A DNA stretch of 63,763 nt, counting the filler, from Collodictyon triciliatum (lineage: Eukaryota), in NCBI GenBank assembly GCA_043381765.1. It is 7 parts of 7 records of this genome, joined end to end, with 100 filler letters (N's around TTAATTAATTAA, not from the genome) between each part and the next. Parts side by side here need not be neighbours in the genome. Positions count along the whole stretch, not along the records: positions 23,377 to 34,960 come from JBHJMP010002362.1; 6 more parts are not named here. One strand, 5' to 3'. The notes beneath the pieces are model-generated. The model was not told the DNA's origin. It saw only the letters and a list, made by a program, of their open reading frames with translations, and did no database searches. The position numbers were made by a program, and so were the translations under genes. Of this stretch, positions 11,986 to 50,900 are shown one piece after another. Numbering within the stretch: position 1 is the first letter of the stretch; every line of letters begins with the position of its first letter.

Positions 11986-23072
<11,087 letters not shown>

Positions 23073-23829
23073 AATTAATCCATTTTGCTCCACTGTCTGT
23101 TATTCACACAAAAAAAAAAAGGAAATGAAAAGGAAAAAGAGAAAGGAAAAAGGAAAAAGGAAAAAGGAAAAAAAGAAAAAAGAAAAAGGAAAAAGGAAAA
23201 AGGAAAAAGGAAAAAGGAAAAAGGAAAAAGGAAAAAGGAAAAAGGAAAAAGGAAAAAGGAAAAAGGAAAAAGGAAANNNNNNNNNNNNNNNNNNNNNNNN
23301 NNNNNNNNNNNNNNNNNNNNTTAATTAATTAANNNNNNNNNNNNNNNNNNNNNNNNNNNNNNNNNNNNNNNNNNNNTTTTTGTTTTTGTTTTTGTTTTTG
23401 TTTTTGTTTTTGTTTTTGTTTTTGTTTTTGTTTTTGTTTTTGTTTTTGTTTTTTTGTTGGGAATCTACAACCGCATGCTTTTCAATGAAGAAACCAAAAG
23501 GAATAAATTGAAATGTTCCATAAATTTCGGGTTTTGCGAATCACATTTTGATGGGACGAAGTAAAATGTTCATTGAATTTCAACTTTAAAATATATTCCT
23601 TCGCAGTTGCTTTCAATTTCAATCTAACGTTCATCAGAAAAATTACGTTCGATTTGGGATGTCAGTGAATCCCGCCACACGGAAAAATAAACACCCAAGT
23701 TTTGTTTCTTTGTGTGTGCAAGACAAAATTTCCAAATGTTGATATTTTCTATACCTCACAATATGAATAAATGTGGTCATCACACTTGGGAGACAGAGTT
23801 GGGATGAGCAATTAAAAAATCACAATGAA

Positions 23830-24950
23830 TAAGAAAATTTTTATGTTTTGCAGAGAAACTTCTATAAGAACAAACAATACACCATGTCATATTACTCCAG
23901 ATACTGCGTGTTTGATATATCTATTAGTACCAACTGGGAAAACATTATTACTGAAGAATATATCAGGATGCAAAGAGACCTATGGGATAGCTTCTTTGAA
24001 ATGAAGAGAGTCTTTCATCAAAGAGACTACAATTTTTAATGCATGATACATACGGCTTGGCTATGACATTACTGTTTGAAAAGAAAGGTATTTCAATTTC
24101 AAAATTCAAATAAAATGAAAAAAAACTAAAATATGTTTATATAGATGAACCTTCCGAAGAGTAGCTATCTTTATTAGCGTCAAAAAAAATAGTTGGAGTG
24201 GACGCAGGCAAGTTTAATTTGGTTTACGTGGTGGATGAGACAGTTAAGAAATTACATTACACGACACACCAAAGAAGACATGATAGGAAATCTCTTGAAA
24301 ATCACAAAATACACTTGCGCGAGAAAGAAAAGTACAATTTTTCAGGGATATGCATAGCAACGGGTTTACAAAGTGTTATTTCTTTTGGTCTCAGGACTTT
24401 TGAAGAGAATCAGCAGTTTGAGACATCAAGAGCATCCTTAATCGATTTAGAGATAGAACTGAGTAAACATAATTCATGCACGGTCGATTATGATAAAAAT
24501 TCTAAAATATGTATCTATGAAATTAAGATACCAGATAGAATTATCCAGATTTTATGAACAAGTAACTTTTCGAAAGATGAGATGGAGATAGTATGTAAAT
24601 ACAAAAAGAAGCAAAGAATTGTTTATGGACCGAATCGAAAAGACATATGGCAAGGATGTTGTGTTGGCGTATGGAGACTGGAACAGAAAATCTCCGATGA
24701 AACTCCTTATGCCATTAATCGGGAGAGGATTACGAAAAAAAAAAAATACTATCCAAACGTTTTGAAACAGTTAGTGTGAATGGATTAAAAACCTCCAAGA
24801 TGTGCTGCAACTGCGAAAAAGAACTGGAATATATGCGACTGAAAGGGAATTCAATAAAGGTGTATAGATGTCTCATGTGTAAAGAGTGCAATCGCTCAGA
24901 AAGCAAACAAAGTGCACTCTTGACAAGGGACTCTAACAGCGCTTAAAAAA
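23830..24950 (+). mobile_element. Degenerate Fanzor1 (eukaryotic TnpB-like RuvC nuclease) pseudogene, N-terminally truncated
   Basis: Intronless. Joining frames gives RTNNTPCHITPDTACLI..LLKNI..LWDSFF..KRVF..DYNF; RuvC-I KIVGVDAGKFNLVYVVD..LHYTTHQRR; LSKHNSCTVDYDK; FRKMRWR; KTYGKDVVLAYGDW; GRGLRK..LSKRFETVSVNGLKTSKMCCNCEKEL; VYRCLMCKEC; RuvC-III TRDSNSA. Several stops and frameshifts. Confidence 0.88.
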
Positions 24951-25618
24951 TATAACCAACAAAGTTCTTTTAATTTCTTGGGTTTAGTCATTTGTGTCAT
25001 TTTTCCGTTACGTATGACGGTCATTCTAATTCTGGATTTACCAAAGAGGTAAAGGCTCAACGGAAACTACACCGCTCGCTATCTAATGCACAAAGCGCAC
25101 CGCTAACAGGCCTCCACGATCTGTAACCATATATATTTGAAATAGTGTCGTCTATTTATGAAGATCGTTGAAATTTAGCCGAATTGAAAAGATATTGTAT
25201 TTGATTCTGATTATTTTCCGCATATAGGCAGTTTCTATCCCAGGCATGTCTACCAGGGACAGTTCCTAGGAACGGGAGAATGGGCAAGATTTGGGTGGTC
25301 GTGGGGACGTAAGGATGCGAAGATGTGTAAAGTTTTGCTGCGTGGGAATGAAATCATCAGCCATACGGGGGACAGCATGTCAGGGGGTTGTGATATTTAT
25401 TCCATTCAGTCTTGACCGGGTGTATTCACGGTGGAAACGGGGGTTACTTTGGCTCTTGAGACCGCTTCTGTCAGACTGAGGAGGCAGTCTGTTGTGTGGA
25501 AAACGGCGACCGTGAGGCAAGTAAAATTGTAAATATCATTACATATAATAATGACTTTTCTATACGATCACCTCACAGACCCAGAAATGTGGAAGCCGAA
25601 AGCGACAGCGCACGTAGT

Positions 25619-29347
<3,729 letters not shown>

Positions 29348-34660: not shown

Positions 34661-35113
34661 AGTTTACTATGCAGCATCATTTGTTCAAGTATGCAAGAAT
34701 GGATTTTTTTTTTAATATTCTTTTTACTCTGCCAGCTTTCAATTTTTTTAGTCCAGCAAATTGTCACTTTTATTTGATGCAAATATTATAATTTGTGGCG
34801 TTATAAGTCAATATCCATGTCTGTCCTTTTGTTTTGTTTTGTTTTGTTTTGTTTTATTTTATTTTGTTTTGTTTTGTATGTATGTATGTATGTATGTATG
34901 TATGTATGTATGTATGTATGTATGTATGTATGTATGTATGTATGTATGTATGTATGTATGNNNNNNNNNNNNNNNNNNNNNNNNNNNNNNNNNNNNNNNN
35001 NNNNTTAATTAATTAANNNNNNNNNNNNNNNNNNNNNNNNNNNNNNNNNNNNNNNNNNNNAAAAATTTTTTAAAATTTTTTTATTTTAATTTTTTTATTT
35101 ACATATATATTTT

Positions 35114-41348: not shown

Positions 41349-44300
41349 TTATGGTTCGGGAAGAGCCCTGCGGCAAGTGGGACATTCATACTTGATGGCC
41401 ATCCACCGCTCTAAGCACAACGGATGGAAGACATGTTCGCAAGGGGTCACCTGGTATCATTTACACCCTTCTGTTTAGTGCACAGGTCGCTCACCAGATG
41501 TACAGCAGTTTTGTAAGTATGTAAGTATGTATGTATGTATGTATGTATGTATGTATGTATGTATGTATGTATGTATGTATGTATGTATGTATGTATGTAT
41601 GTATGTATGTATGTATGAATGTATGAATGTATGAATGTATCGAAAGAGCTATATCCTATTGGAACTGCTGGGCAGCAGAAAATACAGTACCATATACTCG
41701 TTTCGGTCGGGGGACACTGGGGCCATGCAAATAACGCACTCTGACTGCTCGTTCTCTACAAATTCGATTCGTCGATGATAGTCATACTTTTCGGGCAAAA
41801 ACTGCAGAGATAAGCACGAGTGTAAGAATTAAGTAATGCGTGCAGTCTCAGCGAACTATAAAACATGAATATTTGGTATATTGGCAAATGAACTTCAGTT
41901 GAAAAAGAAAGGGTCATATACATGAGAAAATCTAGCATGCGGATGTTTGAAATAAATAAATAAATAAATAATGAAATGGGCTTGGTTAGAATATGAAATT
42001 TTTTTTTACTATTTTCGGGATGCATGCGCGTGGACCAAGGTAGTCTTGAATAAGAAGTATGAATGCTTGGCCAAAGACGTATCTTGTATATATAATATGA
42101 ATGAAAAGAAATAACAAAAAGGGTGTTATCGAATGTAAATAACAGTAACTACAAAAGATAATTTAGTAACGGACTTCTTTTTTTTTTTTACACGAAAAAA
42201 ATTGTCAAGTCGTATCATCGAAACAAATTGACAGAAGAATTATACATTGTTAAAAGCGCAAGGAATGATTGGTCTGGCTCAATTTCCAATATGTTATGAG
42301 GGCATCCAAGGAAATCTAATTCATAAGTTATTTTGAATAGGCAGATGTTATTTGTAAATTTGGGTTTGACGGTTAGCTTCCAACAAAGCTTAAAAGCGGC
42401 AGAAAAATAAAGAAAATCGATCATAAAATAATAAATGGAAGTTGTAGAAATGAATGAAAAATATTTTTAATTACAAAAAGGAATAAAGAGACGTGTGGCT
42501 GAAATTCCGATTATGTAAGACCTATCGATACAAATGTTAAACCATGTGGAAATCCCATGTGCCCGATAAGTTTTGTATCATTCACACAGGTATTCATAAA
42601 TTATATTTCATTAGAAAGTATATATTGAATGATTGTTCATAAATGTAATAGCTCTGTATCAAAAAAAATCTTACGGAAGCAGTGCCCTTCGACTATCTCG
42701 GTGGATATTTGATATGATTTGTGGAATCCAAAATGAATACATGATAAGAATAAACAGGTAAAACATCCCTTGCAACTTGTAGAAGAGAAATATTCCAAGC
42801 ATGAGAAATCCGTCTGTAAGGTTAGTTAGAATAGTGCTACAAGAACTGCAAATACTCAGAAAATAAATGCCGATATAGAAACTTACAAAATCTTATGTAC
42901 AAAAAGCTCAACTCTTGTCTCCAAGATTCAATCCCTTGACTAAATATTTGTGGTCTTCTTGCTTTCCAGATAAACAACAAATAACGCATCTCATATATCG
43001 AAAAGATCACAAACATGAAGAAAGCCACAGTCGAAAATGCATTAAAGAGCGGATCTAGATTGCGCGATCAAATTATATCACTTATCATATATGCAGGTAA
43101 TAAGTGGCAGTATTCTTTGCATAATTAATAAATTCATGATGACTACAGTGAACATATGTAAATGAGATGACCATATATATATGTAAAAAAAAAGAGAGAG
43201 AAACAAACATAGCAACAAAAAACAGATAAAAATTATAGATACAGATACAGATACAGATACAGATACAGATACAGATACAGATACAGATACAGATACAGAT
43301 ACAGATACAGATACAGATACAGATACAGATACAGAGAATCAGACATATAACCAACCAAAGACTATCCCAACTGTGAGATGAATCAAGCACAAGTATGAGT
43401 CGACAATCGCCTGTTGTCCAACGGTGAGCATGGACACCTTGGATGCCCCCTAAAAACTCAGTAAATTAAATAGTTGATACAGCAGTCGACTATATACAAG
43501 TGAAATACTAAGAGAGGACGTTGATTTCATGTTGAAATTATGATGCAAATTTTCGGCTAACTGATGGAGTTGATGAATATTCGAGTTGCTGTAGCAGTAT
43601 CAGAGCTTGAAAGATTGATGTCTACATAATAAATGATATATCGACCATATTTTAGTGATGTATCTGTTAAAATGATTGGAGGTTGAAGTTGATGATGATC
43701 CTTACACCAGTTGCAGCGATAGCATAGTTTATTGCCTTCGTGTAAAAAGTGTCTAATACAATCTGGTCCAGCTTCACAGCAAATTTATACTTGCAAACGT
43801 TGCTGTTCATAACACCACTCAACTTAACTGTATTAAGTACAGAAATACAAAAAACAATTAATAAAACAATAACGATTAGGTATTTTCTAAATCAAATTTG
43901 TTGGTGATATCGTTATACACTCAATATTAAGCATATCGATATTGGTCAGAGGTTTTTTTTTTAAAAAAAATAAAAATAAGAGATTTTTTTTCTGCCATTA
44001 GTTAGAGGACAGGGAGGAAGAAAAAATACCAGAAACAGATTACGCTGAGACATTACTAACTTGCTATTGTATTTGATACACTGGAGGAAAATATTATTTC
44101 GATAGGAAACATACCACGCTCAGACTCATTTAGCTTGTACGCAGAAAGAGTTATGTTATAATAACATCCCGTTTCTGGTTGGGAGTCGAATTGGTTGCGC
44201 ACTATCTCCTCTAATTTTTTTTATAAAAATTAGTATGACAATTTAAGCAGAGAAAGTCCTACTGTAATTTGAATATTTACATGTAATAACGTATCCAATA

Positions 44301-47913: not shown

Positions 47914-50900
47914 TATGCGCATATTCCTCTGTTCACAAACTTCTTTTTTCCCTCTTCATTATGTTTTTGAATGAGATATACAAACAGTTTGCACAATATT
48001 TCATAATTTATTTTTTTATGAACACTTGATGTGTGACCACGACCACTTCACCAATACCAGTCTATTGAATGCCTTGGCGGGCAAACTGATGGAAAAAAAA
48101 TAGCGTGCCCTTATTTCTTCTTTTTCTTTTTGTTTTGTGCTGGCATCTCCGACAGTGGATGCGGAGCTAAACGAGCTGCAAAAGAGATTTCGTGCGTTAG
48201 AGGGAGACCGGAAAAACTACATTGAGGAGTCTCGCAACGTTCTTCGGAAACAGCGAATCGCACTTGAAAAGCTCAAGAAAGAGAATGAATACCTCAACGG
48301 AGAGCTTACTAGGGTAATTAACGGAGAAGGCGTTTGATTAGTTTCTTTCTGCTTATCAACACTGACGCCATGTTATTCTCTTTCTTTCATTTCCCCCCTC
48401 CATTCAACAAATTTATTTTGAAGGTTCAAAGTGCAGATTCAGAAACAGCCTCCTCCCAAAATCTAAGCCTTGCTATGACTCAAGTCCAAGAACAAAATCA
48501 TGGTCAGTTCTTACTTCACCCACTATTCCCTTCAAAACTTTTCACATATAACTTTTTAAGCCCAAAACGACCGAATGCAATTACAACTGATTGAGAAAGA
48601 TCAATCGTGACGTTTTTAACCTCACATACATTCCTAAGCTTTGGAAAGACAAATGGAAATTGAAAGAAGGAAAATAGACGACCTCATTAAGATGGAGAAC
48701 ATGATCAAAGAAAATATCATAACCCACAAGCAAGATACTGGTGGAGTCCATGCAGCTAGAGACACAAACTTATTAATTTTGAGACAAGTTAAAAGCATTG
48801 AGAATAAGCTAGATTTTGTAAGATTTGTACTGTTTTTGGGACAAATTGAATCCATGACATTTTGGTGAAAGGAAAAAAGGAACACAATAGATATATTCAT
48901 TTCAATGTTTTTATCTTATGAACCAAACAGGCTCTTCTGCGATTTAATGAAGCGTTGACTTACAATCGCCAGCTTCGAGAGAAAATAGACATGTTACGAA
49001 AGGAGAGAGTATCATTTGAAGGAATATACAAGAAACTTGAGAGGCAACTACTTGAAAAGAAAAAGGAGATGACAGAGCTTCTAGAAACGTCCAATACAGC
49101 ATATGAGCAGAGGTCAATTTCATTATCTCTGTTCTTTCTTTTTCTAGTCTTCCCACACTCCCATATTTCTTTTTAACCGATTATGAACTTGTGATATTTC
49201 AACGAAATATTGCAGAGATGAAGCCCAGGGCAGGATGATTCAGTTGAAAGAAAAGGCTGAAAAAGATATCATTCTTTACGAAGAGGAAATAAAGGAACTG
49301 AATCGTGTAATTGAGCAGGACCGAAAAATGAAAGGTTTCTTCCTTACCTTTTCTCAAACACCACGAGCTGGGGTTTGGTTAAAATTTAACTTCATCAATG
49401 CCAAAGCACTCATTTTTTTCATTTTGTTACAAACAAAAGAATTTATGAAGCAGAAAGAACCATCCGGTAGACTTTCTGTTGAGGAAAGGAAAAAAAGGCG
49501 TCAAAAGGGTATGTCGATAATTTTTTTTTATTAAATCCAACGAAAATTGATTAATTGGTGCTGAACTAGAACCCACTCTTTAGTAGTAAAGGTACTATTT
49601 TTAAAACACTATACGAATACTCAAACATGTTATCTTGAAGGATAAAAAAAAAAAGCTTATTCAAGCTCTACAAACAAATAGATGTATGGGAGTTTGTTAA
49701 TCCAGTGGCCCTGGCTCAATTGGAAAACGAAAGAACAAACAATATCGAAGTCGGAGTTGCCCGAGTTCTTGTATTTTTCAAACACTAAACAAAAATTTTT
49801 GTAACTCATCAGTGGGCCTGACTCTTGATGTTGTCGCAAACATAATTCAATATATTTTTAAAGGCGGCGACGGGGATGGGCGTGGATGAATTCGCTTCGA
49901 AATTCATCAAAACGGAACAATTAAACTTTGACATGTTCAATCAAGTCAGTGAAATCACGGGTGAAATAGAGAGACTTGAGGCTCAGGTATATTAATTATG
50001 TCCTTTACAGTTTCCTAGTTGCAAAATTATTCTTGACCCAAAAAAAAAAAAACAACAACAACAACAAGAATTAAAATACTCTAGTGTATACCAGCTAGTC
50101 TAATATGTCAAGAACTCATAATTGGACAGATTGCCGACACCAGGGCTGAGATTGAAAAGTTCAAGACGCAAGGGAGTGGCTCCGATAACCAGCATAAAAA
50201 GATCATTCAAGACCTCGGTCTGCTCTCATTTTTATATGTCCTCTTATTCTTTGATATCTCTTATCGAGGATCATTCCCGTGCGGCAGTCACTTTCTGAAT
50301 TGCAGCATGCATCCATGTATTTTTAGCTCGTTTCCCCTTTTTTTTCTGAGATTCACTAGACTTATAATTCATGAATAATTACGTATGAATCAGAGGATCG
50401 GTTGCAACGCATGAACTCCCGTGTGGAAAACTATGAGTCTAAGCATCAAGAAGCGTTGGGACTTTCTCCATCATACATGACATGGAAACATTCCATTATG
50501 CTTATTTCTAAAATTGCTATAAACCATTAGGATGGGTGTGATATCCACCATAAAGGCAGAAATCGAGGTCTGCAATCTCCTCAAATAACACATCATTTGA
50601 ATCAAAACTCCTCCGCTCACTATCATTTCCACAAACCAATCTGTTCCAATGCTTAACGTTACTACCATCCCAACAAGAATGCATTCAATCGGCTGGAGTG
50701 CGAACGAATCGCCCCAAGAAGTTTGGTAGAAGCTGGCCTTACCGAAGACAACATCGTTCAATATCTAGGTCAAATATTACTTCTTGACGAAAGCATTTGC
50801 ATGCTTACAAAACCAACGAAAATACCTTGTTTACGGCTCCTTTTAATTTACTTTATTTGTTTATATAGACTTACTTGACACCAAACATTCTAAATATAGG

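Follow-up and report, generated by a model that had tools for sequence, protein, structure and literature searches.

An apparently nonfunctional Fanzor1 gene fragment in Collodictyon triciliatum, its decaying sister copies and its likely transposon origin

Fanzor1 proteins are eukaryotic and viral relatives of TnpB, and act as transposon-carried, RNA-guided DNA endonucleases. In the genome assembly of Collodictyon triciliatum (GCA_043381765.1), motifs of such a protein lie scattered over three reading frames of a short stretch of record JBHJMP010002362.1, which raises the question of whether this stretch descends from a Fanzor1 gene, what state it is in and how it came to lie where it does. 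The stretch is part of what we call the window, the whole of the DNA analysed here (63,763 nucleotides, seven parts of the genome joined with filler letters), and all positions refer to it. The first-pass annotation, made from the sequence alone, had taken 23830–24950 for a dead Fanzor1 copy that signals a Fanzor-carrying transposon or virus family in this lineage. As set out below, 23861–24946 on the plus strand is almost certainly a nonfunctional Fanzor1 gene fragment that belongs to a multi-copy, decaying family and whose ancestor was likely borne by a Tc1/mariner element.

Homology to Fanzor1

The closest full-length relative, P0004 (634 aa, of metagenome origin), aligns collinearly with the window across reading frames at E 7e-52 in tblastn (E 3.5e-46 with default settings), and the match spans its residues 245–585. 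Homology extends over 23861–24946 on the plus strand in five collinear segments and three reading frames (Table 1), essentially the extent that had been annotated, and every motif listed there, from GVDAGK to TRDSNSA, was recovered on that strand, spread across three frames as claimed. The short second segment is recognised by residues 310–332 of P0032, which align with 23971–24036, paired with 23864–23974, at E 0.001 (tblastn). When the whole window was searched with relatives of at least 550 aa, all 117 of the 117 tblastn pieces fell inside 23000–25500.

The frame-1 piece (100 aa, with TAG entered as X) was compared with 1.84 billion representative proteins by phmmer; 679 of them matched at E ≤ 0.001, of which 46 reached E ≤ 1e-10, and many of the matched proteins are 580–720 aa long and align near residues 430–530. 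Thirty full-length relatives make up profile A1, to which three parts of the window align by hhalign: 24165–24557 (E 1.4e-15), 24719–24946 (E 7e-19) and 23816–24004 (E 2.8e-7). The profile itself matches the solved Fanzor1 proteins of Parasitella (E 5.2e-103), Spizellomyces (E 2.8e-97) and Guillardia (E 9.1e-80). The sole further chain at E ≤ 0.001 is LaTranC (E 7.6e-4); matches of A1 to Fanzor2 or TnpB chains in the Protein Data Bank were absent at that threshold. P0004 alone matches the same three solved proteins (Spizellomyces punctatus, E 9.2e-37, residues 14–607; Parasitella, E 7.2e-34; Guillardia, E 7e-16). Because P0004, profile A1 and the window pieces match solved Fanzor1 or A1, the stretch derives from Fanzor1 by descent. 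The annotated Fanzor1 identity is thereby borne out by profile comparison, with window pieces matching A1 at E ≤ 2.8e-7 and A1 matching three solved Fanzor1 proteins.

Searches with single pieces of the window were less sensitive. Against all solved chains, the frame-1 piece P0001 retrieved the three Fanzor1 proteins alone, and weakly (E 0.049, 0.089 and 0.78). One of six window pieces matched the Pfam family Cas12f1-like_TNB (E 0.017, 15.7 bits versus a cut-off of 26.3); the other five of the six gave no TnpB-type match in Pfam, and the Pfam family OrfB_IS605 did not match. Using phmmer with two of three window pieces (A and C), we obtained chance matches only and did not find Fanzor among solved structures. 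Two word-based protein searches returned no longer relatives of pieces A and B, and no match was obtained in viral-contig scans with pieces B and C as queries or in a metagenome scan with the single piece A. In a protein atlas, recognition of piece A stayed below threshold, with an OrfB_IS605 cluster at rank 30 (score 0.88) among the weak leads.

Table 1. Features of the Fanzor1 fragment, in coordinates of the window
Feature	Position	Strand	Frame	Remarks
P0004 residues 245–291	23840–23977	+	2	tblastn
P0004 residues 318–437	24048–24497	+	0	tblastn
P0004 residues 436–517	24493–24738	+	1	tblastn, 48% identity
P0004 residues 516–585	24740–24943	+	2	tblastn, 50% identity
Segment 1	23861–23977	+	2	first retained part, ~P0004 residues 252–291
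Segment 2	23978–24039	+	1	short; follows a 1-base loss near 23978
Segment 3	24048–24497	+	0	RuvC-I region: GVDAGK, YTTHQRR, ELSKHNS
In-frame stop	24111–24113	+		TAA
In-frame stop	24162–24164	+		TAG
RuvC-I Asp	24201–24203	+	0	GAC; frame coordinates 0 mod 3; aligned to invariant D372
Ala of DAG	24204–24206	+		GCA
Segment 4	24493–24738	+	1	FYEQVTFRKMRWR, in-frame stop, then LAYGDW
In-frame stop	24589–24591	+	1	TAG
Canonical RuvC-II position	24673–24675	+		Gly, GGA, in LAYGDW; aligned to invariant G496
12-A run	24735–24749	+		shift from frame 1 to frame 2
Segment 5	24740–24946	+	2	VNGLKTSK, CCNC...CLMCKEC, TRDSNSA; ends at the last stop
Alternative Glu position	24782–24784	+		Gly, GGA
Zinc-ribbon Cys	24803, 24812, 24869, 24878, 24887	+		CCNC, 18 residues, CLMCKEC
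RuvC-III Asp	24929–24931	+		GAC, in TRDSNSA; aligned to invariant D581
In-frame stop	24944–24946	+		TAA

Retained segments, active-site changes and lesions

The fragment covers approximately residues 252–585 of about 634, that is, the whole split RuvC region and the zinc ribbon, and the window copy keeps about 53% of the protein length. The RuvC-I Asp codon lies where it had been placed, near 24201, and the zinc-ribbon cysteines align with those of the relatives. After RuvC-I, segment 3 bears an insertion of about 33 residues, which among the relatives in alignment A2 is common to P0003 only.

Six positions are invariant in all 30 relatives of profile A1 (D372, P373, E530, T533, D581 and N587), where the window has D, A, G, T, D and K. 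The DPG motif at RuvC-I, which PMC10711439 describes as near-exclusive to Fanzors, has become DAG, with Ala in place of the Pro found in 30 of 30 relatives. At RuvC-II two positions need to be kept apart. The canonical Glu is replaced by Gly or Pro in Fanzors (PMC10530073), which rely on an alternative Glu placed six residues ahead of the zinc finger (PMC10530073, PMC10711439). Gly at the canonical place is therefore normal for Fanzors, and the Gly at the alternative place is abnormal: Glu stands there in 30 of 30 relatives, as it does in P0003, in P0005 and in P0156, a sister fragment. This second Gly codon precedes the opening Cys of the first CxxC by exactly seven residues, and it is here, at the alternative position as described in PMC10711439, that the earlier remark of a RuvC-II Glu reading as Gly holds. 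The invariant Asn six residues after the RuvC-III Asp is Lys in the window, with a stop codon in between.

Four frameshifts interrupt the coding sequence, one near 23978, another near 24045, a third in an A-run near 24494 (one extra A) and the last in the 12-A run, which is 7 bases longer than that of sister copies. Four stops lie in frame, the last of them aligned with a Gln of P0004. At its 5' end the fragment is truncated at 23861, so that about 251 N-terminal residues are missing, and the C-terminal tail is missing as well. We aligned four public runs (X1, X2, X3 and X6) to 23400–25400 at 80% likeness. Immediately before 23861/23862 sister contigs cease to follow the window, and further upstream they carry coding sequence that is absent here. 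Since a 151-nt contig of run X2 covers 23733–23883 without a single difference, the truncation is not an assembly artefact. The stops and the two A-run frameshifts are known from the assembly alone, in which homopolymer lengths are error-prone, and none of the four runs contained an exact independent contig over the window's own version of them.

We looked for the missing parts in the surrounding sequence. Searches of the whole window with the N-termini of 49 queries revealed no remnant of that part, and 88 query tails gave nothing credible downstream of 24946. Homology past 24946, on the 3' side where the guide RNA region would lie, was not found either. A trace of a DDE_3 transposase was not found in the window (best E 0.66), nor was a terminal-repeat match at up to 8 substitutions in 29, a threshold at which 2 of 20 shuffles gave one match each. 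Rfam gave no match at E ≤ 1 within 22000–27000, and no tRNA was found near the fragment. An AG-like acceptor (ttttgcag) just before 23861 was considered as the end of an intron with upstream exons; we rejected this because an upstream coding remnant is absent from the window.

From the lost parts, the frameshifts, the stops and the two changed active-site positions, we infer that the window copy does nothing today. The annotation had called the copy dead on account of stops, frameshifts and the change of Glu to Gly. The damage goes further than that, in that the N-terminus, the C-terminal tail and the Pro of DPG are lost too.

Sister copies and genomic setting

The four runs contributed 5 (X1), 16 (X2), 109 (X3) and 193 (X6) contigs, with likeness to the window from below 90% to above 99%. 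Their depth is confined to approximately 23861–24950; coverage by run X6 ends at about 25008, and run X3 has none before 23802. Of 330 differences from the window, 40 are listed, a set to which position 24783 does not belong. Among those listed, all contigs have C at 24162 and 24589, turning TAG into CAG, and several have T at 24113, which abolishes the TAA. One base fewer is present at 24494 in 7 X3 and 6 X6 contigs, and at 24493 in one more X6 contig; at 24735, 7 bases fewer occur in one X2, one X3 and six X6 contigs. Sister contigs also carry one extra base behind 23978 or 23979. Since two stops and both A-run frameshifts are missing from sister contigs, comparison of the sequences indicates that several lesions are private to the window copy or to a small subset of copies. 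The sister fragment P0156 (82 aa), which is 79% and 74% identical to two window pieces, crosses the junction from frame 1 to frame 2 in a single frame.

The annotated claim of a family in this lineage holds in so far as many contigs are 80–99% similar to the fragment, in one organism's run and in freshwater metagenomes; an intact full-length sister, however, was not seen in the four public runs. Several X6 contigs bear indels of their own, so the family is decaying as a whole. The fragment is one member of this multi-copy family, whose decay is under way in the present organism or in a freshwater organism closely related to it. Three joints that skip 80–129 bases were also seen, each in a single X6 contig.

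To describe the setting of the fragment, we collected stop-to-stop ORFs of at least 75 aa from the window (161, or 134 after 27 low-complexity ORFs were dropped). Pfam matches were found in 12 of the 134, all to cellular families, which include guanylate cyclase, Iml1, EF-hand, Pyr_redox_2, RING, DUF2921 and ODAD1, and none of the 134 matched a viral hallmark or a transposase in Pfam. The ODAD1 exon at 48922–49112 encodes Gln by CAG and CAA, and the intron that separates the ODAD1 exons is an ordinary one, of GT-AG type and about 100 bases long. From these cellular families and from the ODAD1 intron and Gln codons it follows that the window is chromosomal DNA of a cellular eukaryote, with the standard code probably in use. 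The Fanzor1 fragment is isolated in it, outside any integrated viral region. A variant code in which TAA and TAG specify Gln was judged unlikely, given that the ODAD1 exon encodes Gln by CAG and CAA.

Origin of the fragment and relation to known systems

A metagenome scan with a 5-member alignment gave at least 596 pattern matches, at least 417 of them encoding relatives, and 80 loci were kept, all of which (80 of 80) match window pieces at E ≤ 1e-3. The best identities to the window among the 80 are 47–54% (L001–L008), so these loci are not sister copies. Six loci picked for contig size lie on contigs of 147–267 kb with 26–37% G+C, of which 79–94% is covered by ORFs of at least 110 aa. The 90 ORFs of these six loci include genes for a giant-virus major capsid protein, minor capsid P8, topoisomerase II, two mRNA capping enzymes, the ribonucleotide reductase small chain, Hsp70, TFIIB and DUF5755. 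The six large contigs with Fanzor1 relatives are giant-virus-like. A DDE_3 transposase (with HTH) is encoded upstream, on the other strand, in 17 of the 80 kept loci. When loci that differ in their flanks are compared in pairs, an element of about 3.3 kb is delimited, and inspection of nine loci revealed inverted repeats of about 29–30 bp that start with CACC and are flanked by TA, the right repeat lying about 20–50 bases past the Fanzor stop codon.

What the first-pass annotation had asked to have identified of the carrier is present in the relatives and not in the window. A partner transposase exists as DDE_3 (IS630/Tc1/mariner) in the 17 loci, but not in the window; element ends can be defined by the repeats and flanking TA of the relatives, but no terminal repeat is present in the window; and the link to a transposon or virus is visible in the six large contigs with giant-virus genes, but no viral gene is present in the window. 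Such carriage has precedents. Bao and Jurka describe Mariner transposase together with Fanzor1 and TA duplications, with PGv-1 of Phaeocystis globosa virus as one case (PMC3627910); the Fanzor-associated transposons of Jiang et al. include Mariner/Tc1 (PMC10530073); and a 2024 preprint reports IS630-Tc1-Mariner Fanzor1 families A–C in an endogenous giant virus of Chlamydomonas, together with a fragment of a Fanzor on host chromosome 17 (PMC11398304). The arrangement of the relatives, a transposon on a giant virus, has thus been published before.

Because the closest full-length relatives are carried by Tc1/mariner elements on giant-virus-like contigs, the ancestor of the fragment most likely rode a Tc1/mariner-type element as well, a proposal drawn from relatives that share 47–54% of residues with the window. 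To judge from homology, this ancestor most likely worked like characterised Fanzor1 enzymes: the protein would have combined with a guide RNA from the element's 3' end and cut double-stranded DNA beside a short motif, and the guide RNA would have ended at the right end of the Tc1/mariner-type element. Since then, the copy would have lost the N-terminal part, the C-terminal tail, the element's 3' end, the terminal inverted repeats and the partner transposase.

Three other readings of the locus have to be weighed. We find it very improbable that the gene is intact or nearly so, with homopolymer assembly errors or short introns passing for lesions and TAG and TAA read as Gln. Two of the four frameshifts do lie in A-runs (24494 and 24735–24749), P0004 has Gln opposite three of the four in-frame stops, and the window's own version of the lesions is without cover from independent contigs, all of which would suit an intact gene. 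The frameshifts near 23978 and 24045, however, lie outside long homopolymers, the truncation at 23861 is confirmed by the exact X2 contig, and neither the 251 N-terminal residues nor the C-terminal tail can be found anywhere in the window. The changes of the catalytic Glu to Gly and of the invariant Pro to Ala speak against it too, as does the nature of the stops, since C-to-T changes yield such stops at Gln codons and sister copies have CAG there; in addition, Gln is specified by CAG and CAA in the host's ODAD1 exon, and the introns are of the GT-AG type and about 100 bases long. We give next to no credence to the view that the motifs resemble Fanzor1 by chance or are those of a zinc-finger protein without relation to it: a few weak zinc-finger matches can be cited for it (zf-Tnp_2, E 0.018; C1_1, E 0.064; PRDM9 fingers, E 0.0028), but they stand against a five-segment collinear match to full-length relatives at E 7e-52, profile matches down to E 7e-19 and an absence of matches elsewhere in the window.

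The remaining question is whether the fragment could be the remnant of an integrated giant-virus segment and not a transposon copy multiplied in the cellular genome, which we consider unlikely. The repeated part stops exactly at the Fanzor homology (~23861–24950) in four runs, none of the 134 window ORFs matches a viral hallmark or transposase, and the 193 X6 contigs, at 80–99% and several with indels of their own, look like an old dispersed repeat. What gives the viral segment some standing is that the closest full-length relatives lie on the 147–267 kb contigs with giant-virus genes, and that endogenous giant viruses with Fanzor1 elements, and a host chromosome with a fragment, are on record (PMC11398304); the viral relatives, however, are only 47–54% identical. 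This same level of identity is why the viral copies do not identify a direct viral donor. We therefore prefer to see the fragment as a decayed Fanzor1 copy from a multi-copy family whose ancestor was likely carried by a Tc1/mariner element.

Compared with the solved Fanzor1 proteins (8gkh, Spizellomyces punctatus; 9cf0, Parasitella parasitica; 9cer, Guillardia theta), the window copy shows the same block order from RuvC-I to RuvC-III, the same Gly at the canonical RuvC-II position and a zinc ribbon seven residues past the alternative-Glu position. It differs from them in having about 53% of the length, four frameshifts, four stops, DAG for DPG and Gly for Glu, and in the insertion of about 33 residues after RuvC-I. 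The split RuvC fold and the zinc ribbon (Pfam Cas12f1-like_TNB) are common to TnpB (IS200/IS605, IS607) and Fanzor2, and the Glu six residues before the zinc finger also occurs in a rearranged TnpB subset and in Fanzors, according to PMC10711439 and PMC10530073. Unlike TnpB and Fanzor2, the relatives of the fragment are about 620 aa long, with the long N-terminal half of Fanzor1. With the viral Tc1/mariner Fanzor1 elements the fragment shares its nearest relatives, L001–L005, which lie in elements of about 3.3 kb with a divergent DDE_3 on giant-virus-like contigs, whereas the window is without transposase, repeat end or viral gene. As a lone degraded fragment in a cellular chromosome, it resembles the chromosome-17 fragment of Chlamydomonas (PMC11398304).

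Fanzor1 genes have been described by the thousands, among them genes carried by Tc1/mariner elements of giant viruses, and fragments are known from host chromosomes (PMC10530073, PMC3627910 and PMC11398304). The present locus is one more Fanzor1 relic in a cellular chromosome, with its nearest intact kin on giant-virus Tc1/mariner elements, a pattern on record since 2013 and again in 2024, and because it is unable to make a nuclease it is in itself of little import. It nevertheless marks a multi-copy Fanzor1 family, carried by an organism also present in freshwater samples. It is possible, though we hold this only tentatively, that the host lineage harbours intact, active members of this Fanzor1 subfamily, characterised by the ~33-residue insertion and with viral Tc1/mariner elements as kin; if so, such copies would represent a further programmable nuclease and a case of virus–host exchange. 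For mining new Fanzor1 orthologues, intact viral copies such as L001–L005 are preferable to the window copy.

Fanzor1 elements and a shared insertion

Nine metagenome loci on giant-virus-like contigs carry a Fanzor1 gene within an element of ~3.3 kb; the table below gives coordinates for four of these, and further examples are L030, L017, L010, L051 and L063. In these elements a DDE_3 transposase gene lies on the minus strand and Fanzor1 on the plus strand, bounded by TA-flanked inverted repeats of ~29-30 bp with CACC at their start. The Fanzor stop codon precedes the right inverted repeat by ~20-50 bases. This DDE_3 plus Fanzor1 architecture is already in print for other viruses.

Between its RuvC-I and ELSKHNS blocks (window 24330-24430), the window copy carries an insertion of ~33 residues that, among the 11 aligned rows, is common only to this copy and the relative protein P0003. 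This insertion marks a subfamily.

Coordinates of features in the window and on metagenome contigs
Feature	Location	Strand	Remark
Microsatellite array	window 13700-14750	minus (translation)	repeated HTYI
Microsatellite array	window 34800-34950	minus (translation)	repeated HTYI
Microsatellite array	window 41490-41610	minus (translation)	repeated HTYI
EF-hand and Pyr_redox_2 exons	window 26715-28059	minus	
~3.3-kb Fanzor1 element	L001:174-3503		giant-virus-like contig
~3.3-kb Fanzor1 element	L003:6631-9952		giant-virus-like contig
~3.3-kb Fanzor1 element	L004:6588-9910		giant-virus-like contig
~3.3-kb Fanzor1 element	L005:6625-9951		giant-virus-like contig

Upstream flank of the Fanzor1 fragment

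Sequence on the upstream side of the Fanzor1 truncation point (window 23463-23860) was also found in the public sequencing run X6, where a contig of 412 bases spans window 23463-23830 at ~92% identity. Near position 23763 this flank is covered by five contigs, and binned depth there is ~22 over window 23735-23868. The flank may correspond either to an orthologous locus or to a further repeat of low copy number.

A short way upstream of the fragment, at window 23099-23455 (an interval that takes in the filler between two record parts), a long (GGAAAAA)n array stands opposite a (GTTTTT)n array, giving an imperfect palindrome of 133 bases that encloses two 44-base N runs.

Host genes and simple repeats

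The outer-dynein-arm docking gene at window 48922-49531 shows ODAD1_CC in two exons (E 1.7e-19 and 1.7e-12) separated by a GT-AG intron of ~100 bases. A docking gene of this kind means that the host is a eukaryote with flagella or cilia. Taken together, the EF-hand and Pyr_redox_2 exons appear to make up a gene for a calcium-binding alternative NAD(P)H dehydrogenase; this putative gene ends ~1.8 kb downstream of the Fanzor1 fragment.

Low-score tblastn matches at the three microsatellite arrays, whose minus strand translates as HTYI repeats, are spurious. The window holds 15 N runs (1305 bases in total), which are probably masked or withheld stretches; 10 of them are 44 bases each, paired 12 bases apart, and lie within or adjoin simple repeats.
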